From NCBI GenBank assembly GCA_040882605.1, contig JBBEAY010000062.1, positions 4,661-68,660 of the forward strand: a stretch of DNA of 64,000 nucleotides, written 5' to 3'. The notes below the pieces were generated by a model that saw only the letters and a program-made list of their open reading frames with translations, did no database searches and was not told where the DNA came from. The DNA comes from Actinomycetota bacterium. Its GTDB lineage: Bacteria > Actinomycetota > UBA4738 > HRBIN12. Positions 19,338-35,309 of the stretch are shown piece by piece; the first letter of the stretch is position 1; each line of letters starts with the position of its first letter. The position numbers and the translations under genes are program-made.

Positions 19338-19631
19338 ATGCCGGTGGAGATCGACATCGACCACGTTGCGAAGCTCGCTCGCGTGCAGCTTTCCGACGAC
19401 GAGAAGGCGCGGATCCGCGATCAGCTGACGGTGATCCTGGAGCACGCTGCGAAGGTTGGCGAGGTCGCTGCCGACGACGTGGTACCGACGACGTCGCCGA
19501 TCCCGCAGGTGAACGTCTTCCGTGAGGACAGACCGGAGCCGAGCGTGAGCCACGACGCTGCGCTCTCGAATGCACCCGCCGAGCGCAACGGACGGTTCCT
19601 GGTGCCGAAGATCGCGGACACCGGCTCGTGA
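19338..19631 (+). CDS. gatC: Asp/Glu-tRNA amidotransferase subunit C
   Basis: 97 aa. IDHVAKLARVQLSDDEKARIRDQL...ILEH is a canonical GatC sequence. Confidence 0.9.
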   Translation: MPVEIDIDHVAKLARVQLSDDEKARIRDQLTVILEHAAKVGEVAADDVVPTTSPIPQVNVFREDRPEPSVSHDAALSNAPAERNGRFLVPKIADTGS

Positions 19632-21094
19632 CCGAGCTCTGCGACCTGACTGCGTCAGTGCTCTCGGCCCGGCTGCGTGACGGAGAGATCACGACCGTGT
19701 TGCTCGCCGAATCGTCGCTTGCGCGGCGTGAGGTCCTCGACGAACGTGTGCGAGCGTTCCTGACGCCGACGCCACAGGTCGCGCTCGAGCGGGCGGCCGA
19801 GCTCGATGCCTACCTCGCCACCGGAGCGCCTCAGAGCGGGGTCGCGGGCATCCCGCTCGCCCTGAAAGACGTCCTCACGACCAACGGCATCCGCACGACA
19901 TGTGGGTCGAAGATCCTCGAGACGTACGTGCCGCCGTACGACGCGACGGCATGGACGCGCCTGTCGGGCGCGGGCAGCGTGCTCGTCGGCAAGACGAACT
20001 GCGATGAGTTCGCCATGGGCTCCTCGAACGAGAACTCCGCGTTCGGCCCGGTGCACAACCCTTGGGACCTCGACACCGTTCCCGGCGGTTCGAGTGGTGG
20101 CAGTGCGGCGGCGGTCGCGAGCGGCATGGCCGTGTGGGCGCTCGGCACCGACACGGGTGGCTCGGTTCGCCAGCCCGCCTCGCTCACCGGCACTGTGGGG
20201 CTGAAGCCCACATACGGACGGATCAGCCGGTACGGGTTGATCGCGTTCGCGTCCTCGCTCGACACGATCGGCACGTTCACGCGGAGCGTCGGCGACGCCG
20301 CAACGTTGCTCGGCGTGATGGCCGGCAAGGACCATCGCGACGCCACCAGCCTCGATGCCGACGTGCCCGACTACACCGATGGTCTCGATGCCGGCGTCGA
20401 AGGCCTGCGCGTCGGCGTGCTCGCCGAGTCGTTCGGCGAAGGCGTCGATGCCGACGTCGCGTCGTCGGTTCGCGCGGCCTGCGACCGCCTGGAAGCGCTC
20501 GGCGCCGAGGTGGGGGAGGCGACGCTTCCGCATGCGGGATACGCCCTGAGCGCCTACTACCTGATCGCGCCCAGCGAGGCTTCCTCGAACCTCGCTCGGT
20601 ATGACGGCGTGCGCTACGGCCTGAGGGTCGAGGGCGAGGACTCGATCGAGATGATGTTCCGCACCCGTGGTGAGGGGTTCGGTCCTGAGGTCAAACGACG
20701 GATCATGCTCGGCACGTACGCCCTCTCGGCCGGCTACTACGACGCGTATTACGGACAGGCCCAGAAGGTGCGCACGTTGCTCCTGCAGGATTACGCGGCG
20801 GCGTTCGAGCGCTTCGATGTGCTCGTGTCGCCGACGTCGCCGACCACGGCGTTCCCGATCGGGGCGAAGGTCGAGGACCCCATGGCGATGTACCTGAACG
20901 ACATCTTCACGATCCCGGCCAACCTCGGCGGCGTGCCGGCGATCAGCGTTCCCTGCGGGCTCGACTCGGCCGGCCTGCCGATCGGGCTGCAGCTCACGGC
21001 CAGGGCGCTCGACGAGGCGACCCTGTTCCGCGCCGGCGCCGCGCTAGAGCACGATCTCGGGCTCGATATGCGCCCGCCCTTGCTCGCCGCTTGA
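19628..21094 (+). CDS. gatA: Asp/Glu-tRNA amidotransferase subunit A
   Basis: Amidase signature GGSSGGSAAAVA...GTDTGGSVRQPAS. It is GTGA-coupled to gatC. Confidence 0.95.
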   Translation: MTELCDLTASVLSARLRDGEITTVLLAESSLARREVLDERVRAFLTPTPQVALERAAELDAYLATGAPQSGVAGIPLALKDVLTTNGIRTTCGSKILETYVPPYDATAWTRLSGAGSVLVGKTNCDEFAMGSSNENSAFGPVHNPWDLDTVPGGSSGGSAAAVASGMAVWALGTDTGGSVRQPASLTGTVGLKPTYGRISRYGLIAFASSLDTIGTFTRSVGDAATLLGVMAGKDHRDATSLDADVPDYTDGLDAGVEGLRVGVLAESFGEGVDADVASSVRAACDRLEALGAEVGEATLPHAGYALSAYYLIAPSEASSNLARYDGVRYGLRVEGEDSIEMMFRTRGEGFGPEVKRRIMLGTYALSAGYYDAYYGQAQKVRTLLLQDYAAAFERFDVLVSPTSPTTAFPIGAKVEDPMAMYLNDIFTIPANLGGVPAISVPCGLDSAGLPIGLQLTARALDEATLFRAGAALEHDLGLDMRPPLLAA

Positions 21095-22036
21095 GCCACC
21101 GCTCGCGGTCGCGCCGTCGCCACGAGCTGCCCCGCCGCCCGACACGATGAGCGCGACCGCCACGATGATCAGCGCACCGGCCGCAACCGCCGTTGCGGTG
21201 AGCCGCTCGTCGAGCAGGAGCCAGCCGAGTAGCACCGCGCCCACCGGTGTGACGTAGGCATATGTTGCGACGAGCGACGTTCGGGCGACACGCAGCAGCC
21301 ACAGGTAGGCCGTGAACCCGATCCACGAGCCGATCACGATGAGGTACGCGAGGCTGAGCGCGGATGCTTGCGAGAATGAGTCGAGACGCAAGTCGGCCAG
21401 CTCCCCCGCGAGCGCTCCCGCGACCCAGAACACACCGGCGGCGATCACCATCTCCATGCCGGCCGCCACGAACGGACGTCGTGGAAGCCGTGCATGTCGC
21501 TGATAGATCGAGCCCGCCGCCCACGATGCCGCCGCAGCGAGGGCGACCAGCAGTCCGACGAGGTCGATCGCACCGTCGAGCGCCGCGCCGCCGACGAGTA
21601 GCGCCGCGCCCGCGAAACCGACGGCGAGCCCGGCGACCACGACGGGCGGCTGACGCCGATGAAGCACCACGCGGTCGATCGCCGCGATCCACAGCGGCAC
21701 GGTGGCGATCGCGAGTCCGGCCACCCCCGATGGGATCGTGCGCTCGGCCCACACGATGCCGCCGTTGCCTCCGAACATCAGGAGCACCGCCACGACCGCG
21801 GCGCCCTTCCACTCGGCGGCGCCGGGGCGGTCGCCGCGCCGGTCACCCGCTCGCAGCGCGATGGGCAGCAACAACGCGCCGGCCACGAAGAAGCGGACGC
21901 CGGTCGCGACGAGCGGCGGCATCGTCTCGTTGACGAGCTTGATCGCGATGAACGTGGTGCTCCAGATCACGTAGACGGCGCCGAGCGCCGTCCAGATGCG
22001 CCCTGTGCTCGGCGTCGGCTCGGTCACACGTCCCAT
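21044..22036 (-). CDS. EamA/DMT-family transporter
   Basis: 10-TM DMT pattern (VIWSTTFIAIK...). ATG 22036 overlaps the SDR stop by 13 nt. The low-complexity C-tail runs 51 nt antisense into gatA. Confidence 0.8.
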   Translation of the reverse strand: MGRVTEPTPSTGRIWTALGAVYVIWSTTFIAIKLVNETMPPLVATGVRFFVAGALLLPIALRAGDRRGDRPGAAEWKGAAVVAVLLMFGGNGGIVWAERTIPSGVAGLAIATVPLWIAAIDRVVLHRRQPPVVVAGLAVGFAGAALLVGGAALDGAIDLVGLLVALAAAASWAAGSIYQRHARLPRRPFVAAGMEMVIAAGVFWVAGALAGELADLRLDSFSQASALSLAYLIVIGSWIGFTAYLWLLRVARTSLVATYAYVTPVGAVLLGWLLLDERLTATAVAAGALIIVAVALIVSGGGAARGDGATASGGSSGEQGRAHIEPEIVL

Positions 22037-22824
22037 CCGGCGTCGACCGGTATGTCGTGGCCGGTGATGTTCTTGGCGCCCTCGGAGACCAGGAAGTCGA
22101 TCGCGCATGCGATGTCCTCTTCGTCCACGAACCGGCCGAGCGCGGTCTGCGCGGCGAACTCGGCGTACACCTCATCGGGCGTCGTGCCGAGCCTTGCGGC
22201 CTTGGTGGCGACGATCTTGTCCATGCGCTCCCCGTGGGTCACGTTCGGACAGACGTCGTTCACCGTGATGTCGTGCGGGCCGAGCTCCAAGGCGAGCGTT
22301 CGAGTCAGCCCCCGGACCGCCCATTTGGAGGCCGAGTAACCGCTGCGGTTGCGGTATCCACGGAGCCCGGACGTTCCGGCGATGTTCACGATGCGCCCGC
22401 CGCCGCGCGAGATCATGTACGGGATCACGTGCTTACACGGCAGGAAGGTCCCCACGACGTTGAGGTCGAGGATGGAACGGAACTCCTCTGCCGGATACTC
22501 GTGTGCCGGGGTTTCGATCGGGCCCGTGCCGCCGGCGGTGTTCACGAGGATGTCGATGCCCCCGAAGCGCTCGGCCACGGACGCGGCCATCGCCGCGACC
22601 TGCGCCTCATCAGTGACGTCGCACGCAACGACCATGCTCTCTCGCCCCGTGTGCTTCTCGTCGACGAGTCGCGCGTGCTCCTCGAGCGCGCTCGTTGTGC
22701 GGCCGATGAAGGACACGTGGGCGCCGTCGCGGGCCAGATGCTCCGAGACCACGCCCCCGATCCCTTTCGCGGCGCCGGTGACGATCGCCACCCGGCCCGT
22801 CAGCGGTCGTCCGTTCCCCGTCAT
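22024..22824 (-). CDS. Short-chain dehydrogenase/reductase (classical SDR)
   Basis: VTGAAKGIGG, NTAG and YSASK motifs. The ATG overlaps the IclR stop (ATGA). Confidence 0.85.
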   Translation of the reverse strand: MTGNGRPLTGRVAIVTGAAKGIGGVVSEHLARDGAHVSFIGRTTSALEEHARLVDEKHTGRESMVVACDVTDEAQVAAMAASVAERFGGIDILVNTAGGTGPIETPAHEYPAEEFRSILDLNVVGTFLPCKHVIPYMISRGGGRIVNIAGTSGLRGYRNRSGYSASKWAVRGLTRTLALELGPHDITVNDVCPNVTHGERMDKIVATKAARLGTTPDEVYAEFAAQTALGRFVDEEDIACAIDFLVSEGAKNITGHDIPVDAGWDV

Positions 22825-23693
22825 GTCTTGCCTCCTCTTCGCTTGCTCTTGTCGATCCGGGCCTTGATGTCGCGGACCCCTGGGACCTTCAGACCCAGGG
22901 CCCCGGCCACCTCGAGGGCCGCACGATGCACCCGCTCGATGTCTTCGCACACCCGCGCCGGGGACAGGCGGGCGCTGGGGCCGGCCACACCCAGCGCACA
23001 GACCGCACCGCCGTCATCGTTGAGGACGGGAACCGCGACTCCCCACACACCGACGTTGGTCTCTTCGTAGCTGCCGGCCCATCCTCGGTCCCTTATCCGA
23101 TCAAGCTCTTCGCGCAACGATCGGGGGTCGGTGATCGTCGCGTGACAGAGCTCCTCGAGCGGTCCTTCCAAGATCCTGTCGATCGCGCGGGCGTCCAAGA
23201 AGGCGAGCAGCGCCTTCTGCGACGCGCCGGCGTGCAGGGGCAGCCGCCGGCCCGGCGACACCGACAACCGGAGTGACTGCGAAGTCTCGACCCGTTCGAG
23301 GCATGACCCGCCCTCCTGCCCCGGCGAGACGACGGTGAGCAGGGCCGTCTCGCCGGTGTCGCGCGAGAGGTCCTGTAGCACGGGCATCGCGACGGCGCGC
23401 AGGTCAACGACCGAGCGCGCTCGGTCGCCCAGACGAAGCGACGCCAGGCCGAGCCGGAACCGCTTCGACGTTTCGTCCTGGCTGACGTAGCCGTAGCGCT
23501 TCAGCGCCATGAGGATCCTGTGAGCGGTGGGAACGGGCAACCCGACGGCCCGCGCGACCTCCGAGGCGGTCCACTCCGCGTGGTCCTCGTCGAACAGCTC
23601 GAGGATCGAGAACGTTCTTGCCAGCACCCGGAACGATGTCGCGTTGGAGGCGGTTCCGGCTCGACCCTTCCCGGTCGTCGTGGTGGGGGTCAC
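22821..23693 (-). CDS. IclR-family transcriptional regulator
   Basis: ILELF....WTASEVARAVGLPVPTAHRILMAL HTH followed by an IclR effector domain. Confidence 0.85.
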   Translation of the reverse strand: MTPTTTTGKGRAGTASNATSFRVLARTFSILELFDEDHAEWTASEVARAVGLPVPTAHRILMALKRYGYVSQDETSKRFRLGLASLRLGDRARSVVDLRAVAMPVLQDLSRDTGETALLTVVSPGQEGGSCLERVETSQSLRLSVSPGRRLPLHAGASQKALLAFLDARAIDRILEGPLEELCHATITDPRSLREELDRIRDRGWAGSYEETNVGVWGVAVPVLNDDGGAVCALGVAGPSARLSPARVCEDIERVHRAALEVAGALGLKVPGVRDIKARIDKSKRRGGKT

Positions 23694-23711
23694 GGTGCTC
23701 GGTCGTTCGTC

Positions 23712-25139
23712 CTAGATGTGGACGACGACCATCCGCTCCTCGGTCATCTCGCGGACCGCGTCGTGCGGGCCTTCCTTCGTGTTGCCCGATGCCTTCGTGC
23801 CGCCGTAGGGCATCTGATCGACCCGGAACTGTGGCGCCTGGTTGATCATCACGCTTCCGAAGCGCAGCCGGTCGATCGCCGTCATCGCGCTCGGCAGGTC
23901 GCGCGTGAAGATGCCGGCCTGCAGGCCGTACTCGGTGCCGTTGGCGAGCGCGATCGCCTCGTCGAGACTCTCGAACGGCGCCACTGCGACCACGGGCCCG
24001 AAGACCTCGTTCTTCCACACGGGCTGGTCGAAGCCGACCTCGTCGAGCACGACCGGGCGCAGGTGGCCGTCTCCGAATGTTCCTCCCGCGAGCCGTTGGG
24101 CGCCGGCATCCACGGCGGACTCGACCCAATCCTCGACCCGAGCGCGAGCCTGCGGAGTGATGGAAGGCCCGATGTCGGTCTCTGGGTCTGACGGGTCGCC
24201 CGCCCTCTGGGCTCCGGCGGCGGCCGAGAGCTTCTCAACGAACGAGCTGTGCACGTCTCTGTGGACCATCACGCGCTGCACGCTGATGCACGACTGCCCC
24301 GCGAACGCGTACCCGCTGGCGGCCGACGTCGTCGCGGCCGCGTCGAGGTCGGCGTCGGCGCAGACGATCACAGGGGTCGAGTTCCCGAGCTCGAGGGTGA
24401 CGCGTTTGCGAGCCGCCTTGGCCTTCAGTTCCCAGCCGAGCGCTGCCGATCCGGTGAAGGTGAGCAGACCGACACGATCGTCGGCGATCAGCGCATCGGC
24501 GATCGGACCGGGCTCGCCCACCAGAACCGACATCCATGCGGGCGGGAGTCCCGCCCGATGGAAGGCGCGGACCAGCTCGATCGCGGCGAGCGGCGCCTTG
24601 TCGGCGGGCTTGAGCACGACGCCACATCCGGCCGCGACCGCCGGCCCGATCTTGTGCGCTGCCAATGTGAGCGGGAAGTTGAAGGGTGTGATCGCCGCGA
24701 CCACGCCGACGGGCACCCGCACGGTGAACCCGAGGTGGCCGACACCCGCCGGGTGAGCGTCGAGAGGGATGCCTCTGCCGGCCAGGGTTCGTGCCTCCGC
24801 CGCCGAGAAGATCAAGGTCTGGACGCAGCGATCGGCCTCCATGAGGGCCTGCTTATACGGCTTGCCGTTCTCCCCCGAGATCATGCGTGCGAACGCTTCC
24901 CGTCGATCGCGGACCTCTTCGGCGACACGGTCAAGTATCTCGGCGCGCTCCCACGCCGCAAGGCCCGCCTGCATCGCATCCCACGCCGCGTCGATCGAGG
25001 AGCGGGCCGCTTCGGGGCCCAGCCAGGGCACGGCGCCAACGAGGCGGTCGTCCCAGGGAGAGCGGACCTCGAAGGGTTCGCCCTCCGCCACGTCGTTGCC
25101 TGCCACGACGAGAGGCGTCATCTGCGGTGCGGTCGACAT
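23712..25139 (-). CDS. NAD(P)-dependent aldehyde dehydrogenase
   Basis: ITPFNFPL, FTGS, LELGN and GQSCISVQRV (catalytic Cys). GAAGGAGGA SD precedes ATG 25139. The track ORF is over-extended by 75 aa. Confidence 0.85.
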   Translation of the reverse strand: MSTAPQMTPLVVAGNDVAEGEPFEVRSPWDDRLVGAVPWLGPEAARSSIDAAWDAMQAGLAAWERAEILDRVAEEVRDRREAFARMISGENGKPYKQALMEADRCVQTLIFSAAEARTLAGRGIPLDAHPAGVGHLGFTVRVPVGVVAAITPFNFPLTLAAHKIGPAVAAGCGVVLKPADKAPLAAIELVRAFHRAGLPPAWMSVLVGEPGPIADALIADDRVGLLTFTGSAALGWELKAKAARKRVTLELGNSTPVIVCADADLDAAATTSAASGYAFAGQSCISVQRVMVHRDVHSSFVEKLSAAAGAQRAGDPSDPETDIGPSITPQARARVEDWVESAVDAGAQRLAGGTFGDGHLRPVVLDEVGFDQPVWKNEVFGPVVAVAPFESLDEAIALANGTEYGLQAGIFTRDLPSAMTAIDRLRFGSVMINQAPQFRVDQMPYGGTKASGNTKEGPHDAVREMTEERMVVVHI

Positions 25140-25168
25140 CGAACGGGTCCTCCTTCGCTGCCCTCGGG

Positions 25169-25196
25169 TTGACCGGCAACGCTCGGATGGTAACAT
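25169..25196 (+). promoter_or_regulatory. Near-consensus promoter TTGACC-16 nt-TAACAT for the 7-gene plus-strand operon
   Basis: TTGACC at 25169-25174 and TAACAT at 25191-25196, in the 112-bp divergent intergenic region. Confidence 0.45.
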
Positions 25197-25220
25197 GCGC
25201 CATCTCGGCAGTCGAAAGAG

Positions 25221-25239
25221 CTTCTCATCAAGTGAGAAG
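25221..25239. promoter_or_regulatory. Perfect 7-bp inverted repeat CTTCTCA-5 nt-TGAGAAG overlapping the SD of the first operon gene
   Basis: Seen directly at 25221-25227 and 25233-25239. It lies between the putative TSS and GTG 25252. It is either a candidate IclR operator or an SD-sequestering hairpin. Confidence 0.4.
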
Positions 25240-25251
25240 GGACAGGTACCC

Positions 25252-26211
25252 GTGGATCGACCCGATCTCGAGCTCCTGCGTGGCGCGATCGACATGCACG
25301 CGCACACCGGGCCCGCGCTCTTCCGCAGGCATATCGATGACGCCGCGTTGGCCGAGTACGCCATCCGCTACGGCATGCGCGGCTTCGTCCTGAAGGATCA
25401 CGACGCATCGACCACTGGGCGCGCCTACTACGTGAACCGCATGTTCCCTGAGGTCGAGTCCTTCGGGGCCGTCGTGCTGAACCGCTCGGTCGGCGGGCTG
25501 AACCCGTACGTGGCGGAAGCAGCGATCCACTACGGGGCTCGCGTCGTGTGGATGCCTTCGAACCACTCGAAGTACCACGCCGAGTTCTTCAACATGCCCG
25601 ACTACCCGCAGTTCGGCCGCCCGAAGCCGCAGCTGCCGGGCGATGGCGTCACGGTCTTCGAAGACGATGGGCTCACCCTCACATCGGCTGCGCGGACGAT
25701 CTGCGAGGTAGTGGCCGCCAACGACGTCGCGCTCGCGACGGGACACCTGTCGTTGCCCGAGATCCGGGCGCTCCAGGGTGCGGCGAATGCGGCGGGAGTG
25801 AAGCACTTCATCGTCACCCACGCCAACTGGTCGCTCTGCAGGCTCGACGTTGCCGTGCAGAAGGAGCTGATAGAGGAAGGAGCGACGATCGAGTACGTGG
25901 CGTGCTCATGCGTGTCGCCGATCTTCTGGGAGCAGCAGCCGGGCGAGCTCGCGGAATGGATCATCGAGCTGCAAGGCGAACACCTCGTGTTCGGTTCCGA
26001 TCTCGGTCAGTTCGCAGGCCCTCCCCATCCCGAAGGCCTGCGCATGCTCCTGGCAGCCCTCCTCGACGTGGGAGTGCCCTACGAGTACCTCGAGAAGATG
26101 ACGAAGCGCAATCCCGAGCGCGTGCTGGGTCTCGAGGCGGGCTGGACGCCCGCGATCGAGCCGTCGCTGCCCGACCTGACGCCGGCGCGCCCCGAGGGTT
26201 CGCACCCATGA
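25252..26211 (+). CDS. DUF6282-like / amidohydrolase-superfamily metal-dependent hydrolase
   Basis: The N-terminal IDMHAHTGP metal-binding motif, ...VWMPSNHS... and ...VTHANW... fit a TIM-barrel hydrolase pattern. 319 aa. It is ATGA-coupled to the next gene. Confidence 0.6.
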   Translation: MDRPDLELLRGAIDMHAHTGPALFRRHIDDAALAEYAIRYGMRGFVLKDHDASTTGRAYYVNRMFPEVESFGAVVLNRSVGGLNPYVAEAAIHYGARVVWMPSNHSKYHAEFFNMPDYPQFGRPKPQLPGDGVTVFEDDGLTLTSAARTICEVVAANDVALATGHLSLPEIRALQGAANAAGVKHFIVTHANWSLCRLDVAVQKELIEEGATIEYVACSCVSPIFWEQQPGELAEWIIELQGEHLVFGSDLGQFAGPPHPEGLRMLLAALLDVGVPYEYLEKMTKRNPERVLGLEAGWTPAIEPSLPDLTPARPEGSHP

Positions 26212-27506
26212 CTTCGTTCTGGCACCCGTTCGCCGACATGGCTGCGGTGGAGGTCTCCGGCGAGCTGTCGATCGTGAGGGGAGAGGGTTCGCACGTCTGG
26301 GACGCGGGCGGTCGTCGCTACCTCGACGCCACGGCGAGCCTCTGGTACTGCAACGTGGGGCACGGGCGCTCCGAGATCGCCGATGCGGTCGCGAGGCAGA
26401 TGCGCGAGCTCGAAGCGTTCTCCACGTTCCAGGATCTCACGAACCCGGTGGTCGACGAGCTCGTCGAGCGCATCGCTCGGATCGCTCCAGTTGCCGGCTC
26501 GAAGGTGTTCCTGACGAGTGGTGGCTCGGACTCGATCGATACGGCCACGAAGATGGTCCGCCGGTACTGGCACCTGCGTGGACAGCCCGAGCGCCAGGTG
26601 CTGATCCGGCGAGAGCGCGCGTATCACGGCATGCACGCCGCTGGGACCGCGCTCGGCGGTATCCCCGCCAACGCCGTTGGGCACGGCTCGTTGCTTCCCG
26701 ACGTGGTTGAGGTTCTGTGGGACGACGCCGACTCGCTCCGCGCCACGATCGCCGGGTTGGAAGGGAAGGCCGCCGCCTTCTTCTGCGAGCCGATCATCGG
26801 CGCCGGCGGTGTATTCGCTCCGCCGGCCGGATACCTAGAAGCGGTTCGGCGAGTGTGCCGCGACGCCGGGGTCCTCTTCATCGCCGATGAGGTGATCACC
26901 GGATTCGGCCGGACCGGCGAGTGGTTCGCGAGCACGCGTTGGAATCTCGAGCCCGACCTGGTCACCTGCGCGAAGGGCATCACCAGTGGTTACTTGCCGC
27001 TCGGCGCAGTGATCGCGGCGCCGACGGTCTGGGAGCCCTTCTATGCGGAAGGGGCCGGCATGTGGCGGCACGGCTACACCTACTCCGGACATGCCGCCGT
27101 GGCTGCGGCCGCGATCGCGAACCTCGACATCGTCGAACGTGAGCAGCTGCTTGCGCGAGCGGTCGAGCTCGAGGGCATGCTCGCCGAGGGGCTCGGCGCG
27201 TTGGCCGGCCACGAGCTCGTGAGCGAGGTGCGTGCCGGCACGGGCGTCCTCGCCGCCGTGCAGATCGATCCATCGCGGCTCGAGGCGGACCCCGGGTTGG
27301 TCCAGGCGATCGTGCCGGCCTGTCGCGCGAACAGCGTGATGACGCGGACGCTGGTGACGGGCGCCATCCACATCTCCCCTCCGCTCGTGCTCCAGGACGA
27401 GGAGATCGATGAGCTGGTGAGCGGCCTCTGGGGAGCGCTCGATGACCTTCGGCGTTCTTCCGAGCGGCAGCTCGCCCATCAGACGGAGCCCGGCGAACCC
27501 CGATGA
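26208..27506 (+). CDS. Class-III (omega-type) PLP aminotransferase
   Basis: FWHPFADM..., LWYCNVGHGR, FLTSGGSDSIDTA, FIADEVITGFGRTG and TCAKGITSGYLPLG (PLP Lys). Confidence 0.85.
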   Translation: MTSFWHPFADMAAVEVSGELSIVRGEGSHVWDAGGRRYLDATASLWYCNVGHGRSEIADAVARQMRELEAFSTFQDLTNPVVDELVERIARIAPVAGSKVFLTSGGSDSIDTATKMVRRYWHLRGQPERQVLIRRERAYHGMHAAGTALGGIPANAVGHGSLLPDVVEVLWDDADSLRATIAGLEGKAAAFFCEPIIGAGGVFAPPAGYLEAVRRVCRDAGVLFIADEVITGFGRTGEWFASTRWNLEPDLVTCAKGITSGYLPLGAVIAAPTVWEPFYAEGAGMWRHGYTYSGHAAVAAAAIANLDIVEREQLLARAVELEGMLAEGLGALAGHELVSEVRAGTGVLAAVQIDPSRLEADPGLVQAIVPACRANSVMTRTLVTGAIHISPPLVLQDEEIDELVSGLWGALDDLRRSSERQLAHQTEPGEPR

Positions 27507-27519
27507 CGAGGATCGACCC

Positions 27520-28380
27520 GTGTTCGTGAAGCCGTTCCGCTACGTGCGCGCCGAGAGCTTGGCGCAGGCGTGTGAGGTTCTTCGAACGGCCGATGGGACG
27601 GCGAAGGTCATCGCGGGAGGCCAGAGCTTGCTGCCCATGGCCAACCTCGGCCTGCTCGACCTCGAGGCCGTCGTCGACATCGGCAGCGTGGAAGGCCATC
27701 GAGGAGTGGATGAGAACGACGGGTTCCTCACGATCGGCGCGCTCACCCGACACCGCGATCTGGAGCGCGACCCGACGCTGATCGCGCAACAGCCTCTGAT
27801 CCCGGCGGCGACCTCTTGGATCGGATCCGCCCGCATCCGCACGCGGGGCACGCTGGGCGGTTCCCTCGCTCACTCGGACCCCGCGGCTGAGCTGCCGCTC
27901 GTCATGACGGCCCTCGGGGCCGAGTACGAGCTCACGACCGCAAGCTCCACCCGTGTCGTTCGGGCGGACGAGTTCCACGTCTCGTACTTCACGAACGCGC
28001 TCGCGGAGGACGAGCTGATCGCGGCCGTGCGCGTGCCGGCCCTTGGCCCCGGCTGGGGGTGGGGCTTCGCCGAGATCTCCCGGCGGCGGGGCGATTTCGC
28101 GATCGCCGCCGCCGCAGCGCTCGCGCGTGTCGCGGACGGCCACGTCGTCGAAGCACGCCTCGCGCTCGGCGGCGTGCACGAGCGGCCGATGCGGCTCGCA
28201 GACATCGAGAGCGCCACGACGGGGGCGTCGGCATCCGAGCTCGACGCTCGTATCGGGCCCGTCGAGGGGCTGCAAGCCGTGAGTGATACGAGCGCAACGG
28301 CCGAGCATCGAACGCACGTGGCTCGGGTGCTCGCGCTTCGGGCGCTGACCGACGCGGTTCGACGTGGGGAAGCTGCGTGA
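27520..28380 (+). CDS. Molybdenum hydroxylase FAD-binding (medium, CoxM/XdhB-like) subunit
   Basis: KPFRYVRAESLAQACEVL...KVIAGGQSLLPMANL...GTLGGSLAHSDP. Start taken as GTG 27520. Confidence 0.8.
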   Translation: MFVKPFRYVRAESLAQACEVLRTADGTAKVIAGGQSLLPMANLGLLDLEAVVDIGSVEGHRGVDENDGFLTIGALTRHRDLERDPTLIAQQPLIPAATSWIGSARIRTRGTLGGSLAHSDPAAELPLVMTALGAEYELTTASSTRVVRADEFHVSYFTNALAEDELIAAVRVPALGPGWGWGFAEISRRRGDFAIAAAAALARVADGHVVEARLALGGVHERPMRLADIESATTGASASELDARIGPVEGLQAVSDTSATAEHRTHVARVLALRALTDAVRRGEAA

Positions 28381-28862
28381 GCTCGGCGCACGAAGTGGAG
28401 ACATCGTTGAAGGTGAACGGGGTGGCCGTGAAGGAAACGGCCGGCGCTCATCTGTCCCTTCTCCGCTGGCTCCGGGACATCGCCGGAGTCACCGACCCCA
28501 AGTACGGCTGCGGTGAGGGCGTGTGTGGAACATGCACGGTGCTGGTAGATGGCGAGCCGGTGTCTGCCTGCATCGTCCTCGCGGCACAGGTCGACGGGGC
28601 CGCCGTCACCACGGCGGCGGGCTTGTGCGAGCCCGACGGGTCGCTCGGTCCGTTGCAGAGGGCCTTTCACGAGTGTCACGCAGCCCAATGTGGGTTCTGC
28701 ACCCCTGGCATGTTGATGTGTGCGGCCTCGATGCTCGGCGAGGCCGACCACACGCTTGAGCGCCACGAGATCAGGGAAGGACTGCACGGCAACCTGTGCC
28801 GATGCACCGGGTACGGCCCGATCGTCGACGCGATCGACGCCGCTCAGGGATCCGCGCCATGA
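28377..28862 (+). CDS. Molybdenum hydroxylase [2Fe-2S] (small, CoxS-like) subunit
   Basis: CGEGVCGTCTV and QCGFCTPG...CRCTGY cysteine clusters. Confidence 0.9.
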   Translation: MSSAHEVETSLKVNGVAVKETAGAHLSLLRWLRDIAGVTDPKYGCGEGVCGTCTVLVDGEPVSACIVLAAQVDGAAVTTAAGLCEPDGSLGPLQRAFHECHAAQCGFCTPGMLMCAASMLGEADHTLERHEIREGLHGNLCRCTGYGPIVDAIDAAQGSAP

Positions 28863-31204
28863 GCGAAGTGCGGACCTCCAAGCTCGACGAGCTGCGTGTG
28901 GTGCACCAGCCCCTTCCCCGTCACGATCAGGCCGAGAAGATCGCCGGCACCACGAAGTTCGCCGGCGATCTGGCGTTCGCCGGCATGCTCCATGCCTGCG
29001 TGGTCCGGTCGCAGGTGCCGAGCGCGACGATCACGCGCCGCGACGGCGACGACGCCCGGCGGGTTCCCGGAGTCGTCGCCGTGCTGTTCGGCGAGGACGT
29101 GCCCAACAACGAGATCCGGGTCGACGTGCCGGGCCAGACGGTGGTGGTCGGAGCGTTCCGGGCATCGATGCAGGTGCTGGCGACCGACCGCGTCCGGTTC
29201 CACGGGGAACCGGTCGCGCTGGTGATCGCCGAGACCGAGGACGCGCTCGCCGTGGCGCGCGAGCTGGTGACGATCGAGTTCGATGACCTGCCCGTGGTGA
29301 GCGATCCGGAGCAAGCCCTCGCCGCCGGCGCCTTCCAGGTGCATGACGGCGGCAACCTGCTGGCAGAGTGGCGGATCGACCGGGGCGACGTGGATCCCGC
29401 GTTCGATCGAGCGGACGTCGTCGTCGAGGACGAATACCGCACGCAGTTCGTCGATCACGCCTACCTCGAGCCGGAAGCCGGAGTCGGGTGGCTCGACGAC
29501 GACGGGGTGCTGACCCTCCGCGTGGCGACGCAGGTGGTCGAGCACTACCGCGACGTCGCGAAGATCCTCGGAGTGCCGGATTCCAAAGTCCGCGTCATCG
29601 CGCCCTACGTCGGTGGAGGATTCGGGGGCAAAGAAGACATGACCGTCGAGCCCTACGTCGCCCTGGCCGTCTGGCACACACGCCGGCCGGTCCGCATGCA
29701 GTGGACGCGCAACGAGTCGCTGCTGGCCCGCGCCAAGCGTCATCGCAACGTGATGCGTTACCGCACCGCGGCCTCGGCCGACGGCACGCTGCTCGCCCAC
29801 GACATCGACATCCTCTCCGATGCCGGTGCGTACGCGTACCTCTCAGCGCTCGTGCTCCTTTACTCGACAGTGCACGCCTGTGGACCGTACCGGGTGGGCA
29901 ACGTGCGCATCCGCGCGAGGACGGCGTATACGAACAACCCGCCGACCTCGGCGTTCCGAGGCTTCGGCGGCATGCAGATGGTGCTCGGGTACGAATCGCA
30001 GATCGACGAGGTCGCCAGACGTCTCGAGATCGACCCGGGCGAGATCCGTAAGCGCAACGCGCTCGCCCGCGGCGACCGCCTGCCGGTCGGTCAGGAGCTG
30101 ATCACCGAGGTCCAGCTCGCGCAGACGATCGATGCCGTGCGCGAGCGGGCGGGCGGCAAGCCCACCCCCGCTGGTCCTCGCAAGCGCACCGGACGGGCGA
30201 TCGCCTCGAACATGCAGTCCTACGGGCGGCTCGTGTGGTTGAATGACTCCGCCGCTGCGTGGATCGGGTTCCAGATGGACGGATCGGCGACGGTGCGCTG
30301 TGGCGTCCCGGATATCGGTGGCGGCCAGGCCTCGTCGCTCGCACAGATCGCGTCCGAGATCCTGGCGGTCGACATCGACCGGATCAGCGTGCATTTCGGC
30401 GACAGCGCGCTCACGCCTTTGGCGGGCACGACGACGGCGACTCGTCAGCTGCTGATGTCGGGCAACGCCACCTACGAGGCGGCCACGATGCTGCGCGACG
30501 GCATGCTCGGTGCCGTCGGCGACGAAACCGGTCAGGCGTTCGATTCGCTGCGCATGACGCCTCAGGGAGTGCTCGGGCCCGACGTCACCATGCCGCTCGT
30601 CGACGTGTTGCAGCTGTGCCGGCGTCGGAGCGTTCCGATCGAGGCGCTGGGCACGCACTTCGGCCCCAAGGGAAGAGAGGTCACCCGAGACCTCGAGGGC
30701 GGGCGCATCTTCCCCGACTTCACGTTCGGCACGCACCTCGCCGACGTCGAGGTCGACATCGACACGGGTGAAGTGGAGATCCTCCGGTACATCGCGGCCC
30801 ACGACGTGGGCCGGGCGATCAACCCTCTCTCGGTGGCGGGGCAGATCTCGGGTGCCGCCGTGCAGGGCATAGGGCAGGTGCTCCTCGAGGAGGTCGTGAT
30901 GCAGGATGGCGTCAATCTCACCCCGGGTCTGTTCCAGTACCTGATACCCACCGCGACCGACGTGCCCGACATCGAGACCCTGATCCTTGAATCGGGCGAA
31001 GGCCTCGGGCCCTTCGGCGCCCGCGGCATCGGCGAGCCTCCCATCGGCCCCCCGCTCGGAGCGATCCCCGCGGCCATCGCCGATGCGATCGGCGTTCGCC
31101 CCACGACACTTCCCATCACACCCGAACGCGTGCTTTCGTGTATCGCGGCGGCGACCGCCGCCGCTGGGGTGCGGGGAGCCTCACAGGAGGGAGCGAAGTC
31201 ATGA
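28859..31204 (+). CDS. Molybdenum hydroxylase molybdopterin-binding (large) subunit, xanthine-dehydrogenase/aldehyde-oxidase type
   Basis: 781 aa. It carries the AFRGFGGMQ motif (XDH type) rather than the CODH VAYRCSFR/AYRGAGR loop. GGGQ and GEPP motifs are present. ATGA couplings on both sides. Confidence 0.85.
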   Translation: MSEVRTSKLDELRVVHQPLPRHDQAEKIAGTTKFAGDLAFAGMLHACVVRSQVPSATITRRDGDDARRVPGVVAVLFGEDVPNNEIRVDVPGQTVVVGAFRASMQVLATDRVRFHGEPVALVIAETEDALAVARELVTIEFDDLPVVSDPEQALAAGAFQVHDGGNLLAEWRIDRGDVDPAFDRADVVVEDEYRTQFVDHAYLEPEAGVGWLDDDGVLTLRVATQVVEHYRDVAKILGVPDSKVRVIAPYVGGGFGGKEDMTVEPYVALAVWHTRRPVRMQWTRNESLLARAKRHRNVMRYRTAASADGTLLAHDIDILSDAGAYAYLSALVLLYSTVHACGPYRVGNVRIRARTAYTNNPPTSAFRGFGGMQMVLGYESQIDEVARRLEIDPGEIRKRNALARGDRLPVGQELITEVQLAQTIDAVRERAGGKPTPAGPRKRTGRAIASNMQSYGRLVWLNDSAAAWIGFQMDGSATVRCGVPDIGGGQASSLAQIASEILAVDIDRISVHFGDSALTPLAGTTTATRQLLMSGNATYEAATMLRDGMLGAVGDETGQAFDSLRMTPQGVLGPDVTMPLVDVLQLCRRRSVPIEALGTHFGPKGREVTRDLEGGRIFPDFTFGTHLADVEVDIDTGEVEILRYIAAHDVGRAINPLSVAGQISGAAVQGIGQVLLEEVVMQDGVNLTPGLFQYLIPTATDVPDIETLILESGEGLGPFGARGIGEPPIGPPLGAIPAAIADAIGVRPTTLPITPERVLSCIAAATAAAGVRGASQEGAKS

Positions 31205-32538
31205 CCTACGGCATCGAGGAGTACGAGCGGCGGACCCCCAAGGGCCGACAGGCCTGGGAGAAGATCGCGAAGCTGATCCCAGGGGGAGTCGGGAGCGCGA
31301 TCCAGTTCAAGCCTCCCTATCCGTTGTACCTCGCTGACTCGAAGGGATCCCGCGTATGGGATCTGGATGGCAACGAGTACATCGACTACTCGCTCTGCTA
31401 CGCGGCGATGGTCGCCGGTCACGCTAACCCGGTGATCGTCGAGGCGATCAAGCGCCAGGCCGAGCACGGCACGCTCTACGGCCTGCCGACGACGCTCGCC
31501 GGCGATCTCGCCGAGGAGGTGATCCGCCGCTATCCCGGCGTGATCGAGATGATCCGGTTCACCCAATCCGGTGTCGAAGCCACGCAGACGGCGATCCGGC
31601 TCGCGCGCGCCGCCACCGGCCGCAAGACGATCGTGAAGATCGAGGGGCAGTACCACGGCGGCACCGATCACCTGCTCGTGTCGATCGGCGGAGCTTCCGC
31701 CGATGCCGCCGGGCCCGACGACCACCCGAACGCCACCGCAGACTCGGCTGGGCTGCTCCCGGCTTCCACGCAGTACACGGCCGTCGTGTCGTTCAACGAC
31801 CTCGACATGATGCGCCGGGCGTTCGACGAGCACGATGGCGACGTGGCCGGCGTGATCGTCGAGCCGGCGATGACGAACGGCGGGGTGATCCCTCCGGTGC
31901 CCGGCTACCTCGAGGGCATCCGCGCGCTCTGCACCGACAAGGGTGCCGTGATGATCATGGACGAGGTGAAGCTCGGGTGCCGGATCGCGCCTGGTGGCGC
32001 CACCGAGTATTGGGGCGTGAAGGGAGACCTCGTCACGCTCGCGAAGGCGATCGGTGGCGGAGTTCCGGTCGGCGCCTTCGGTGGCAAGCGTGAGCTCATG
32101 GAGCAGATCAGTCCGCTCGGCCCTGCGGTCCATTTCGGCACGTACAACGCGAATCCGCTGGGCATGGCGGCCGGACTCGCCTGTCTCACGAAGGTCATGA
32201 CCGACGACGCCTACAAGGAGATGACGCGCCTCACCACCCGGCTCGCCGACGGCATGCGCGAGGTCTTCGCGGACAAGGGTGTGACGGCTCACGTCGTGCA
32301 ACTGAACACGCTGGGGGGGCTGTTCTTCGGGCTCGATCGCCAGCCCAACAACTTCCGAGAAGCGGCGATGAACGACGCTGCCAGGTGGGACGACTACTGG
32401 TTCGCCATGTTGGATCGCGGCGTGATCCCGATGGGCTCGGCGTGGTTCGAAGAGTTCTCGATGTCGGCTCAACACACCGACGAGGACGTCGACCGGACGC
32501 TCGAGGCCTTCGAGGACTCGATCGCGGCGATCGCCTGA
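31201..32538 (+). CDS. Class-III aminotransferase, glutamate-1-semialdehyde-2,1-aminomutase-like
   Basis: ...LIPGGV...GSRVWDLDGNEYIDY...FTQSGVEATQTAIRLARA...MDEVKLG...TLAKAIGGG. Confidence 0.8.
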   Translation: MTYGIEEYERRTPKGRQAWEKIAKLIPGGVGSAIQFKPPYPLYLADSKGSRVWDLDGNEYIDYSLCYAAMVAGHANPVIVEAIKRQAEHGTLYGLPTTLAGDLAEEVIRRYPGVIEMIRFTQSGVEATQTAIRLARAATGRKTIVKIEGQYHGGTDHLLVSIGGASADAAGPDDHPNATADSAGLLPASTQYTAVVSFNDLDMMRRAFDEHDGDVAGVIVEPAMTNGGVIPPVPGYLEGIRALCTDKGAVMIMDEVKLGCRIAPGGATEYWGVKGDLVTLAKAIGGGVPVGAFGGKRELMEQISPLGPAVHFGTYNANPLGMAAGLACLTKVMTDDAYKEMTRLTTRLADGMREVFADKGVTAHVVQLNTLGGLFFGLDRQPNNFREAAMNDAARWDDYWFAMLDRGVIPMGSAWFEEFSMSAQHTDEDVDRTLEAFEDSIAAIA

Positions 32539-32584
32539 GGACAGCGAGCGGCGAGGAGAGCGAACGAAAGGCAAGCCGAACGAC

Positions 32585-33778
32585 ATGGCCGTCACCGCGA
32601 CGGGCGCCGACGACGTCACGGTCGAGGCGTTGATCGACGATCCGTATCCGATCTACGCGCGGCTGCGGCACGAGTCGCCCGTGTGCCACGTGCCGGCCGT
32701 CGGTCTGTGGTTCGTGACGCGCTGGGCCGACGTCGTAGCCGCCGCCGAAGACACGGCATGCTTCCCGGCTTCCATGGCCGACTCACCGCTCGACCGCAGC
32801 CTTGGAGGGCGGAACGTCCTCACGGTCGATGGCGGCGAGCACGAGCGCAAGCGCGCGCCGATGGAGAACACACTCCGTCCTCGCAACGTCGAGGCCAGCG
32901 CTCCCGCGATCGTCGAGCGGATCGCGAACGGGCTGATCGACGGGTTCCTCGCCGATGGCGAAGCCGACCTGAAGACCGCGTACTGCGAGCCGCTCGCGGC
33001 GTCCTCGCTCGCCGAGGTGATCGGGCTGCATGGGCTCGACGCGCCTACGTTGCAGCGATGGTTCCACGAGCTCGCGACCGGAACGTCTAACTACGAGGGC
33101 GACCCCGTGAAGCAGCAGGTGGCGGAGCGCACAAGCGCCGAGGTGGACGCCACGCTCCGGCCGATGCTGGCTGCGGTTCTCGAACGACCCGACGGCACCA
33201 TGATCTCCGACATGCTCCATGCGGAGTCCGGCGATCTCGAGGAGAAGATGCGAGGGTTCATGCCGACACTGAAGCTCGCCCTGATCGATGGGCTCCAGGA
33301 GCCGGGCGACGGCCTCGGATCGACGCTCGCCGGCGTTCTCGGGAACGAGGACCAGCGCCCCGTGTTCCTCGATGATCCTGCTGGCCTCGCGCGGCAGGCT
33401 GTGGATGAGGGCATCCGGTGGGTGTCGCCGATCGGAACGCAGGGACGTGCCGCGGGCCACGGTGCATCGGTCGCGGGTGTCGAGATCCCTGAGGGGCAGG
33501 CCGTCGGGCTCATCATCCCGTCGGCCAATCGCGACGAAAGCGTGTGGGGCCCGACCGCGGATCGCTACGACCTCTTCCGAGCGCGCCATGCCAACGCCGC
33601 ATTCGGGTTCGGGCCGCATTTCTGCGTGGGGCACCAGCTCGCGCGCGTGCAGATGCGGACGGGGGTTCGCCTGCTCGCGGAGCGCCTTCCGGGGCTCCAC
33701 CTCGATCCGCAACGGCCACCCGTGTTCCGAGGTTGGGAATACCGGGGCCCAGCGAGCCTGCATGCGAGATGGAGCTGA
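32585..33778 (+). CDS. Cytochrome P450 with atypical I-helix
   Basis: Heme loop FGFGPHFCVGHQLA and ExxR (DEGIRW). The I-helix position reads ALIDGLQEPGDG, i.e. E-P instead of the usual D/E-T. Confidence 0.85.
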   Translation: MAVTATGADDVTVEALIDDPYPIYARLRHESPVCHVPAVGLWFVTRWADVVAAAEDTACFPASMADSPLDRSLGGRNVLTVDGGEHERKRAPMENTLRPRNVEASAPAIVERIANGLIDGFLADGEADLKTAYCEPLAASSLAEVIGLHGLDAPTLQRWFHELATGTSNYEGDPVKQQVAERTSAEVDATLRPMLAAVLERPDGTMISDMLHAESGDLEEKMRGFMPTLKLALIDGLQEPGDGLGSTLAGVLGNEDQRPVFLDDPAGLARQAVDEGIRWVSPIGTQGRAAGHGASVAGVEIPEGQAVGLIIPSANRDESVWGPTADRYDLFRARHANAAFGFGPHFCVGHQLARVQMRTGVRLLAERLPGLHLDPQRPPVFRGWEYRGPASLHARWS

Positions 33779-33843
33779 CCCGCGGCACGCCGGCTTCGGG
33801 TCCGCCCGTTCCCCGTCGAACCGAGCCTCCTGACCGTGTCCGT

Positions 33844-33849
33844 TAGGCT
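33844..33849 (+). promoter_or_regulatory. Putative -10 (TAGGCT) for a leaderless, independent gatB transcript
   Basis: TANNNT hexamer 8 nt upstream of ATG 33858, with no SD. It is part of a 12-mer GTTAGGCTGACC that also occurs at 38553-38564. Confidence 0.4.
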
Positions 33850-33857
33850 GACCTGCG

Positions 33858-35309
33858 ATGACCGAGTACGAGGCCGTGATCGGGCTCGAGTGTCACGTGG
33901 AGCTCAGCACCGAGACCAAGATGTTCTGCGGATGCCGCAACACGTTCGGCGCTCCGCCCAACACCAACGTCTGCCCGGTGTGCCTCGGGCATCCCGGTTC
34001 CTTACCGGTTCCCAACCGCGAGGCGATCCGGCGCATCATCACGATCGGGCTCGCACTCGGCAGTGAGATCGCGCCGCATTCGCTGTTCCACCGCAAGAAC
34101 TACTTCTACCCCGACATGCCGAAGAACTTCCAGATCAGCCAGTACGACCTGCCGATCTGCGTGGGTGGCCACCTCGACGTGGAGCTTCCCGATGGATCCA
34201 CGAGCCGCGTGGGCATCACGCGCGTGCACATGGAAGAGGACACCGGCAAGACCACACATGCCAGCTCGAGTGGGCGCATCCACGACGCCGACGCGGCGCT
34301 CGTCGACTTCAACAGGGCGGGCGTGCCGCTCGTGGAATGCGTGAGCGAACCCGACATCCGCTCGCCCGAGGAGGCCGGCTCGTACCTGCGTGAGCTTCGC
34401 GTCACGCTCGAGTCGCTCGACGTGAGCGACGTGCGCATGGAGGAAGGCTCGCTCCGCTGCGACGCCAACGTCTCGATGCGTCCGGTGGGCGCTCAGCCCC
34501 TCGGCACTAAAGTCGAGATCAAGAACATGAACTCGGTGCGCTCGCTCGAGCGCGCGCTCGTCTACGAGATCTCGCGGCAGACGAAGGCGCTCGAAGCCGG
34601 TGAGGCGATCGTGCAGGAGACCCGCCACTGGAACGAGGACGCGAGTGCCACGGCTTCGATGCGTTCCAAAGAGGAAGCCTTCGACTACCGATACTTTCCA
34701 GAGCCCGACATCCCGGCGATCGAGCCGGCCGCGGTTTGGATCGAGGAGCTCCGCGCCGCGTTGCCCGAGCTGCCGCGCGCCCGGCGTGAGCGCTACGTCA
34801 TCGAGCACGGGTTGAAGCCCGAGGTGGCCCGCGTGCTGGTGGGCGACCGTGCGGCCTGCGTGGTCTTCGAGGAGACCGTGGAGCTCGGTGCCGACCCCGT
34901 GGCCGCCGCCAACTGGGTGACCCAGGATCTCGCCGGGCTCGCGAACAAGCACGGCGCCGACGCGGCGGCAAGGGTCACTCCGCGACACCTGGCAGACCTG
35001 CTCTCGCTGCTCGCCGACGACAAGGTCAGCGGTGCGGGGGCGAAGCAGGCGCTCGAGGATGCCGTCGAGACCGGCGACGACATCGATGCGATCGTCGAGC
35101 GTCGCGATCTGCGACAGGTCTCCGACTCGGGGGAGCTCGGCGCGATCGTCGAGCAGGTGCTCGTCGGCAACGCCGACGCCGTAGGGAAATTCCGGTCGGG
35201 CAACGAGAGCGTGATCGGCTTCTTGGTGGGGCAGGTCATGAAGGCCTCGGGCGGTTCGGCGAACCCGAAGCTCGCGCAGGAGCTGTTGCGCGAGCGCCTG
35301 AAGAGCTGA
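33858..35309 (+). CDS. gatB: Asp/Glu-tRNA amidotransferase subunit B
   Basis: YEAVIGLECHVELSTETKMFCGC...CPVCLGHPGSLP is a canonical GatB N-terminus. The C-terminal GatB/YqeY domain is present. Confidence 0.95.
   Translation: MTEYEAVIGLECHVELSTETKMFCGCRNTFGAPPNTNVCPVCLGHPGSLPVPNREAIRRIITIGLALGSEIAPHSLFHRKNYFYPDMPKNFQISQYDLPICVGGHLDVELPDGSTSRVGITRVHMEEDTGKTTHASSSGRIHDADAALVDFNRAGVPLVECVSEPDIRSPEEAGSYLRELRVTLESLDVSDVRMEEGSLRCDANVSMRPVGAQPLGTKVEIKNMNSVRSLERALVYEISRQTKALEAGEAIVQETRHWNEDASATASMRSKEEAFDYRYFPEPDIPAIEPAAVWIEELRAALPELPRARRERYVIEHGLKPEVARVLVGDRAACVVFEETVELGADPVAAANWVTQDLAGLANKHGADAAARVTPRHLADLLSLLADDKVSGAGAKQALEDAVETGDDIDAIVERRDLRQVSDSGELGAIVEQVLVGNADAVGKFRSGNESVIGFLVGQVMKASGGSANPKLAQELLRERLKS

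Follow-up and report, generated by a model that had tools for sequence, protein, structure and literature searches.

A putative catabolic gene module in the gatA-gatB interval of soil Actinomycetota, probably an old insertion into the gatB promoter gap

We describe here the interval between the gatA and gatB genes in a 64-kb stretch of DNA (68% G+C) from contig JBBEAY010000062.1 of an Actinomycetota bacterium; this whole stretch is referred to as the window, and all coordinates are window positions. Gene identities were assigned with Pfam and NCBIfam, and gene starts were corrected afterwards. The left core flank consists of the plus-strand genes gatC (19338–19631; Pfam GatC) and gatA (19628–21094; Pfam Amidase), preceded in the order ligA, folD, gatC, gatA by ligA (16076–18172) and folD (18351–19277). 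The right core flank, identified by Pfam and also on the plus strand, comprises gatB (33858–35309) and genes encoding a major facilitator superfamily (MFS) transporter (35321–36649), a Rieske-type ferredoxin (36689–37051) and a ferredoxin reductase (FdR; 37065–38306). The 12,763 nt between the end of gatA at 21094 and the start of gatB at 33858 are occupied by 11 densely arranged genes that form two divergent operons; this confirms by Pfam and coordinates the spacing of around 12.76 kb and the gene arrangement given in the original prediction for this DNA. We consider it probable that ten of these genes represent a catabolic module, which was inserted long ago into the gatB promoter gap in one subclade of soil actinobacteria and was tolerated by virtue of gatB having its own promoter.

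The minus-strand operon starts with the aldehyde dehydrogenase (ALDH) gene (23712–25139), followed by genes for an IclR-family regulator (22821–23693) and a short-chain dehydrogenase/reductase (SDR; 22024–22824), these three forming the left arm of the module (Pfam, NCBIfam). It ends with a gene encoding an EamA/YedA-like drug/metabolite transporter (21044–22027; Pfam EamA, the YedA-like NCBIfam match being below cutoff), for which GTG 22027 was taken as the start (alternative ATG at 22036). On the other side of a 112-nt divergent control region (25140–25251; promoter scan), the plus-strand right arm begins with the duf6282 gene (25252–26211), assigned by its metal-ligand signature, an AlphaFold2 model and Foldseek. 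It is followed by genes assigned by Pfam, NCBIfam and PDB sequence matches, i.e., a class-III aminotransferase of the omega-transaminase type (AT3a; 26208–27506), the flavin adenine dinucleotide (FAD) subunit (coxM-like; 27520–28380), the 2Fe-2S subunit (coxS-like; 28377–28862) and the molybdenum cofactor (MoCo) subunit (coxL-like; 28859–31204) of a Mo hydroxylase, a HemL-like class-III aminotransferase (AT3b; 31201–32538) and a GcoA-like cytochrome P450 (32585–33778). The P450-gatB spacer (33779–33857, plus strand) carries the gatB hexamer and the right junction. Six gene pairs, IclR/SDR, SDR/EamA, DUF6282/AT3a, coxM/coxS, coxS/coxL and coxL/AT3b, are joined by ATGA or GTGA stop-start overlaps, and the real spacers of the cluster measure only 112 nt (the control region), 46 nt and 79 nt, i.e., they are too short for a hidden recombinase gene.

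As for signs of mobility, we found no tRNA or tmRNA gene and no Rfam RNA family in the window, and no integrase, recombinase or transposase domain was detected by Pfam among some 40 of its open reading frames (those of the cluster and around 30 flanking ones). The search for flanking direct or inverted repeats returned only chance-level matches of 20–40 nt across the interval. In these respects the original prediction, which saw no integrase, tRNA or flanking direct repeat, was borne out by the Pfam, tRNA and repeat scans. One 29-nt direct match of 76% connects 22808–22836, i.e., the ribosome-binding site and first codons of the SDR gene, with 33803–33831 in the P450-gatB spacer; it was considered as an insertion scar and rejected, as many chance pairs of the same strength occur in this GC-rich interval.

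For comparison, 80 loci around gatB homologues were fetched, and the window proteins were mapped onto each of them. The relatives' loci are designated by L-numbers (L001, L002, etc.) and derive mostly from metagenome-assembled genomes (MAGs); the sample is a small one and not a pangenome statistic. An exact-sequence look-up of the GatB protein of the window gave no match. The closest gatB relatives belong to uncultured soil Actinomycetota MAGs, with protein identities of 90, 88 and 81%, followed by others at 63–78%. Neither Mycobacterium nor any cultured genus is found among these nearest relatives, which renders the earlier comparison with Mycobacterium off target.

In distant Actinomycetota, gatA and gatB are adjacent and 14–95 nt apart. 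The organization gatC-gatA-EamA(minus)-gatB-MFS-Rieske-FdR was found in eight relatives lacking the cluster (L003, L004, L006, L007, L008, L011, L012 and L017), where the gap holding only EamA amounts to approximately 1 kb (about 0.6–1.2 kb). EamA is thus resident, and the insertion comprises ten genes from SDR to P450 (approximately 22024–33843). In the family of the window, the gatA-gatB interval ancestrally contained a single gene, EamA, which is not part of the cargo. Its arrival together with the cluster was rejected, as the gene has orthologues in the cluster-less relatives (74% identity to that of L003, in line with the flanks). Hence, the 11-gene insertion proposed originally stands as a lineage-specific insertion for ten genes, but not for EamA. 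Nor do the data support the supposed left insertion joint, for which the 51-nt antisense overlap of EamA (stop at 21044) with the 3′ end of gatA and the low-complexity EamA tail had been put forward: an overlap of 51–54 or 129–132 nt was observed in eight of nine relatives whether the cluster is present or not, along with a homologous G/S/E-rich tail, so that both features are met in relatives without the cluster as well.

The core flanks (ligA-folD-gatCA on the left, gatB-MFS-Rieske-FdR on the right) are syntenic in L001–L017, L171 and L172. The cluster itself shows a patchy distribution, being found in four lineages of one subclade and absent from around 14 other family members. In L002, the genes from ALDH to P450 are located directly upstream of gatB. 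L081 retains gatA-EamA-SDR-IclR-ALDH and the divergent genes from duf6282 onwards, while L172, which comes from the same sample, shows AT3b-P450-gatB. L171, a 608-kb contig, carries the whole module, then five extra genes encoding a glyoxalase, a hypothetical protein, YecM, AAA_18 and a peptidase S51 (11253–13987 of L171), and then gatB; its gatA-gatB gap reaches about 15.6 kb versus 12.8 kb in the window. The L081 EamA gene (5331–6773 of L081) contains an internal tandem duplication of approximately 150 amino acids, which is either real or an assembly artefact. Given that the relatives are mostly MAGs, the window could plausibly come from a metagenome as well, and such assemblies can be chimeric. 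That the interval was produced by joining two unrelated contigs is nevertheless hardly credible, since the left junction is repeated in L081 and the right one in L002, L172 and L171, i.e., in independent samples and with different assemblers.

Other genes were found to occupy the same position elsewhere in the family. L001, sister to the cluster carriers, has four of them in a 3.8-kb gap (encoding a β-propeller-like protein, an EamA of 41% identity, a glyoxalase and a SnoaL protein), and in L005 unrelated genes lie upstream of gatB. Altogether, the number of genes in the gatA-gatB gap of the relatives is 0, 1, about 4, 11 or 16, and in this comparison of cargo the gaps extend from 41–95 nt at the short end to about 15.6 kb in L171. 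The interval behaves as a variable region between core genes, which has been reused by different cargo.

At the left junction, the stop codon TGA of the SDR gene (22026–22024) overlaps the GTG start of EamA (22027–22025) as GTGA, and the junction in L081 is identical. In the cluster-less relatives, EamA is preceded by its own hexamer of the TATC(A/C)T type approximately 7 nt before the ATG, which is gone in the window, and the starts of EamA and gatB are separated by around 28–180 nt. In L003 (9960–10003) and other cluster-less relatives, the distance between these starts goes down to about 30 nt, and the two −10 boxes stand back to back (ATGATAGGTAGGCT). There, EamA and gatB apparently represent an extremely compact divergent pair of leaderless-looking promoters. 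At the right junction, homology to the cluster-less relatives begins approximately 5 nt 5′ of the gatB hexamer TAGGCT; the 11.8-kb module thus occupies a divergent promoter gap that elsewhere measures 28–180 nt. Next to this junction, a 56-nt stretch specific to the window (33773–33828) includes a GC-rich hairpin and is absent from L002, in which the P450 reading frame ends in the TAG of the TAGGCT hexamer.

In the window, TAGGCT occupies positions 33844–33849 and is followed after 8 nt by the ATG of gatB, for which a longer reading frame is excluded by an in-frame TGA (33849–33851). We found TA(G/A)GCT 6–10 nt before the gatB start, without a Shine-Dalgarno (SD) sequence, in around 15 family members. 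The hexamer is kept under varied upstream contexts, which include the divergent EamA, gatA (L016), an α/β-hydrolase gene (L005), a SnoaL gene (L001), the P450 gene (the window, L002 and L172) and a peptidase gene (L171). In genomes with a divergent EamA, gatB cannot be reached by read-through, and there the hexamer must be its promoter. Distant taxa with adjacent gatA and gatB possess an SD sequence before gatB instead. Similarly, gatC is preceded by TACACT 7 nt before its ATG, without an SD sequence (19317–19340), and its relatives have TAGACT, TACACT or TAAACT at this site; the TA[GCA]ACT-N7-ATG arrangement is conserved in 14 relatives, none with an SD sequence. Judging from this conservation, a leaderless promoter of its own is very probable for gatB, and both gat transcription units (gatCA and gatB-MFS-Rieske-FdR) apparently are leaderless. 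This agrees with the original prediction, in which TAGGCT was read as a leaderless gatB promoter; the hexamer is, however, no product of the insertion, given its presence in some 15 relatives.

The descent of the carriers was followed in concatenated trees of the two flanks. On the right (gatB+MFS+Rieske+FdR) the topology was ((W,L002),L001),L003, and on the left (ligA+gatC+gatA) ((W,L081),L001),L003, where W denotes the window, both with 100% bootstrap. The carriers are thus monophyletic and nested in cluster-less lineages, so that a single gain is sufficient. DNA identity among the carriers is 81–84% in the cluster and 85–86% in the flanks, and with four carrier lineages at 81–86% the insertion must be old and vertically inherited since. 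In composition, the insert is indistinguishable from the backbone: the tetranucleotide distance is 0.0131 inside versus 0.0118 ± 0.0014 outside, i.e., within 1 SD (here standard deviation), the G+C content at third codon positions is 0.849 versus 0.859 (Mann-Whitney p=0.34) and the codon-usage distance 0.114 versus 0.124 (p=0.65). Both this composition and the similar divergence of cluster and flanks among the four carriers would also fit a cluster that had already occupied the gatA-gatB interval in the ancestor of the entire family and was repeatedly deleted afterwards. We regard this scenario as improbable; the carriers are nested as described, each loss would have to recreate the 28–180-nt EamA/gatB gap with both −10 boxes, and other genomes carry the same module at loci unrelated to this one. 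As to the ancient fixed arrangement that was envisaged beforehand as the opposite of an acquisition, the composition does resemble that of the backbone, but the cluster occurs only in one subclade instead of being spread over the family.

Indeed, the divergent module was identified at non-gat loci in L083, L084/85, L168, L169/170, L082 and L086/87. These copies from outside the clade keep the core ALDH-IclR-SDR <-> DUF6282-(AT3)-CoxMSL-(AT3b)-(P450) among unrelated neighbors, and the ALDH-IclR-SDR arm is common to L081, L083, L084, L168, L169 and L171. The neighbors include MTTB/RACo genes in L083, ilvC-leuA-leuB in L169, Pot-type ABC importer and alanine dehydrogenase genes in L168 and L169, and a second CoxMSL set, CoA-transferase and Amdase genes in L082 and in L086, the latter from Acidimicrobiales. 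The IclR-controlled module is a portable unit in soil Actinomycetota, and the closest copy outside the clade shows 63–88% amino-acid identity. In a search of 5.8 billion proteins, the top 120 clusters are filled by DUF6282 homologues of 76–93% identity from different actinobacterial classes, whereas GatB is only around 53% identical to that of Acidimicrobiia; in a 50%-clustered library the DUF6282 subfamily comes down to one representative, the next full-length relative being at 58%. Such high conservation hints at strong constraint on DUF6282 and/or lateral spread of the module.

The many contexts of the module and its patchy distribution in the family are what one would expect if a mobile element had recently delivered a genomic island and both junctions were still fresh scars, the view toward which the original prediction leaned. 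This is very unlikely in light of the other data. No integrase or transposase, tRNA, flanking repeat or compositional deviation accompanies the insert, the insertion is shared by four lineages that are only 81–86% identical in DNA, and the supposed left scar, with the EamA tail and overlap, is ancestral. Moreover, no module copy of >98% identity was found in unrelated genomes, plasmids or integrative and conjugative elements, the closest one outside the clade being at most 88% identical in amino acids.

The module seems to bring its own regulation. In the control region, GATGGTAACAT (25186–25196) reads as an extended −10 element on both strands, with a TTGACC −35 at 25169 (promoter scan), which suggests a bidirectional promoter of the module. 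An inverted repeat, CTTCTCA-N5-TGAGAAG (25227–25245), overlaps the SD sequence of duf6282. The GATGGTAnCAT motif and the CTTCTC-N5-7-GAGAAG repeat were found in all module copies, including those of Acidimicrobiales. In the repeat, 88.7% of cells are paired compared with around 50% in slid controls; its covariation is not beyond shuffles and does not tell apart the two candidate roles, i.e., an IclR operator or an SD-sequestering RNA hairpin.

Among the module enzymes, the DUF6282 protein shows invariant H16, K48, H190 and D250 and conservation of at least 90% for H18 and H165 in an alignment of 66 sequences. Its AlphaFold2 model is an amidohydrolase (beta/alpha)8 TIM barrel (pLDDT 94.6), and the Foldseek matches, with TM scores of 0.55–0.63, include dihydroorotase, PTER, renal-dipeptidase-like enzymes and phosphotriesterase-like lactonases. 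These residues match the HxH/K/H/H/D ligand set of the amidohydrolase superfamily, and we infer that the protein would be a binuclear-metal amidohydrolase. The Mo hydroxylase belongs to the xanthine dehydrogenase family and is a CoxSML-type heterotrimer with FAD_binding_5/CO_deh_flav_C, Fer2/Fer2_2 and Ald_Xan_dh_C/MoCoBD_1/MoCoBD_2 subunits (Pfam). For its large subunit, 4-hydroxybenzoyl-CoA reductase (HcrA), nicotinate dehydrogenase, KdhL and quinoline oxidoreductase (Qor) are nearest in the PDB, where xanthine dehydrogenase was matched as well, and no equivalog match was obtained, the best NCBIfam hit being pucD (490 bits versus a cutoff of 784) and the others also remaining below. The closest PDB matches of AT3a are putrescine and polyamine:pyruvate transaminases, and those of AT3b are glutamate-1-semialdehyde aminomutases and β-transaminases. 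In turn, ALDH resembles aminobutyraldehyde and succinate-semialdehyde dehydrogenases (NCBIfam). The regulator has an N-terminal HTH_IclR and a C-terminal effector domain (Pfam), with BhcR and PcaR as its nearest NCBIfam families, below cutoff. For the P450, structures of the aromatic O-demethylase GcoA are the top named PDB matches (E about 1e-59), and no gene for a GcoB-like reductase was found in the cluster.

Based on these similarities, the module probably encodes the breakdown of an amine or an N-heterocycle under the control of IclR. Its chemistry might involve transamination and/or Mo hydroxylation, followed by ring or amide opening by DUF6282 and a second transamination; ALDH and SDR would oxidize the resulting aldehyde or alcohol, and P450 would demethylate or hydroxylate. 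A more specific proposal is an undescribed polyamine or cyclic-amine route, in which a transaminase would yield an amino-aldehyde and from it a cyclic imine, the Mo hydroxylase a lactam, and DUF6282 an omega-amino acid, to be finished by the second aminotransferase, ALDH and SDR, with EamA captured as the pathway transporter in place of a Pot-type ABC system. We consider this route doubtful, and a literature search returned nothing relevant on a Mo-hydroxylase/lactam route or a similar cluster. Apart from the module, further amine-related genes are located downstream in the window, at 41552–46738 and 53035–58733, and encode a flavin amine oxidase, two GCV_T-family aminomethyltransferase paralogues, an ALDH, an amino-acid permease and a pyridoxal-phosphate decarboxylase.

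In more than 20 metagenome contigs (L088, L091, L094–L106, L123–L132), the gene directly behind a homologue of the GcoA/CYP255-like P450 of the cluster encodes a small Rieske-type ferredoxin, and L094 contains an MFS-P450-Rieske operon. The backbone MFS-Rieske-FdR genes of the window lie 1.5–4.5 kb downstream of the P450 gene, the Rieske-FdR pair at 3 kb, and a redox pairing of the P450 with a Rieske ferredoxin may exist. The metagenome scan with the P450 returned no orthologue of more than 71% identity and no further copies at gat loci. A Rieske ferredoxin has also been reported as the native partner of a P450 (PMC12979805), which counts in favor of a functional coupling of the module with its surroundings, either through use of the backbone Rieske ferredoxin and reductase by the P450 or through co-regulation with GatCAB by read-through from the IclR-controlled operon. 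Read-through from P450 into gatB is possible in the window: the terminator scan detected no terminator-like site between the two genes, and the hairpin of the spacer scores no better than shuffled sequences (z=−1.0). The position of the L002 P450 stop codon inside the gatB −10 hexamer points the same way. All the same, we judge such coupling rather improbable as the cause of the arrangement. The module is also present where gat genes are missing and, in most cases, no Rieske gene is found either, and the Rieske similarity of 31–51% is at the general family level. The retention of the ancestral promoter hexamer in the window argues that gatB stays autonomous, and L171 accommodates five unrelated genes that separate P450 from gatB, its gatB start being intact (TAGGCT-N6-GTG).

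The reading that we favor, i.e., an old insertion of the ten-gene module, would run as follows. Ancestrally, gatCA and gatB-MFS-Rieske-FdR would have been two leaderless-looking units in the order gatC-gatA-EamA(minus)-gatB, the −10 boxes of EamA and gatB standing back to back. The self-contained 11.8-kb module, equipped with its bidirectional promoter and IclR regulator, would then have landed in the EamA/gatB divergent gap of the common ancestor of the window, L002, L081/L172 and L171. Its source may have been an actinobacterium of similar composition, probably a relative, or a different site of the same genome. At the right end of the insert, gatB would have retained just its −10 hexamer and start codon and remained independently expressed. 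On the left side, EamA would have lost its promoter and become the last gene of the ALDH-IclR-SDR operon through the GTGA overlap, presumably co-transcribed with it. The arrangement would have been inherited vertically since then.

Several points weigh against this account and its extension to function. Promoter function, the leaderless status and SDR-EamA co-transcription are read from conserved sequence, and the hexamer-to-ATG spacing of 8 nt in the window is 1–2 nt above the textbook spacing for a transcript starting at the A of ATG. A gatB-only neighbor-joining protein tree places the cluster-less L001 next to the window, although we rejected this sister relationship in favor of the concatenated trees with their 100% bootstrap. 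As for the origin of the module, either horizontal gene transfer or intragenomic relocation would fit the data, and no tRNA, recombinase or above-chance repeat points to a donor or an insertion mechanism. On the functional side, the search of the PDB found no sequence relative of DUF6282 and the literature search no paper on it, no module protein reaches an NCBIfam equivalog cutoff, and any substrate assignment is speculative.

In mycobacteria, gatCA and pfkA-gatB form separate operons (PMC7541841). The locus described here is similar in that gatB is parted from gatCA by intervening DNA and belongs to a second transcription unit. It differs in that the ancestral gene between them is the minus-strand EamA and not pfkA, that gatB heads its own unit with a promoter at its start codon, and that in the subclade of the window the gap has grown to 12.8 kb by a larger and later insertion. 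The interval is also reminiscent of the chromosomal integration hotspots between syntenic core genes that Oliveira, Touchon and Rocha reportedly described in 2017, as it combines conserved core flanks with varied cargo in one interval and no recognizable mobile-element genes; here the sample is a small one of MAGs, and the insertion point can be placed between two −10 boxes, within a gap of some tens of nucleotides. Mycobacterial leaderless genes are said to carry a TANNNT −10 element just upstream of the start codon (work attributed to Cortes and colleagues in 2013 and Shell and colleagues in 2015). The gat genes resemble such actinobacterial genes in having TANNNT 6–10 nt before ATG or GTG, no SD sequence, and conservation in orthologues, while the spacing is slightly above the canonical 6–7 nt and the likeness is known at the level of sequence.

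The module resembles clusters of N-heterocycle Mo hydroxylases (nicotinate dehydrogenase, the 6-hydroxypseudooxynicotine dehydrogenase KdhLMS, quinoline 2-oxidoreductase) in that an FAD/2x[2Fe-2S]/MoCo enzyme is encoded in a regulated catabolic operon together with hydrolase and dehydrogenase genes, and its Mo large subunit matches nicotinate dehydrogenase-, KdhL- and quinoline-type structures at E values of 1e-63 to 1e-88. It differs in giving no equivalog match and in its partners, i.e., DUF6282, two class-III aminotransferases and the GcoA-like P450, a combination with a Mo hydroxylase that the literature search found in no paper. With polyamine/omega-amine catabolism based on a SpuC-type transaminase and an aminoaldehyde dehydrogenase, it shares AT3a and ALDH and, at other loci, the Pot-type importers and alanine dehydrogenase beside it; to these it adds the Mo hydroxylase, the DUF6282 hydrolase and the P450.

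Overall, the insertion is an ordinary, well-resolved case of accessory genes between core genes and does not overturn current understanding. The most useful lead is the DUF6282/Mo hydroxylase/two-aminotransferase module itself, which is widespread, well conserved and uncharacterized, and thus a target for enzymology. The locus further provides a base-level example of how the genes of an essential multi-subunit enzyme can be pushed far apart without harm, and of how an inserted operon may take over a resident gene, EamA appearing to have been captured through a 4-nt stop-start overlap. With a minimal promoter of this kind (−10 only, leaderless) in front of gatB, the DNA upstream of it would constitute a safe landing site, which has been reused in this lineage.

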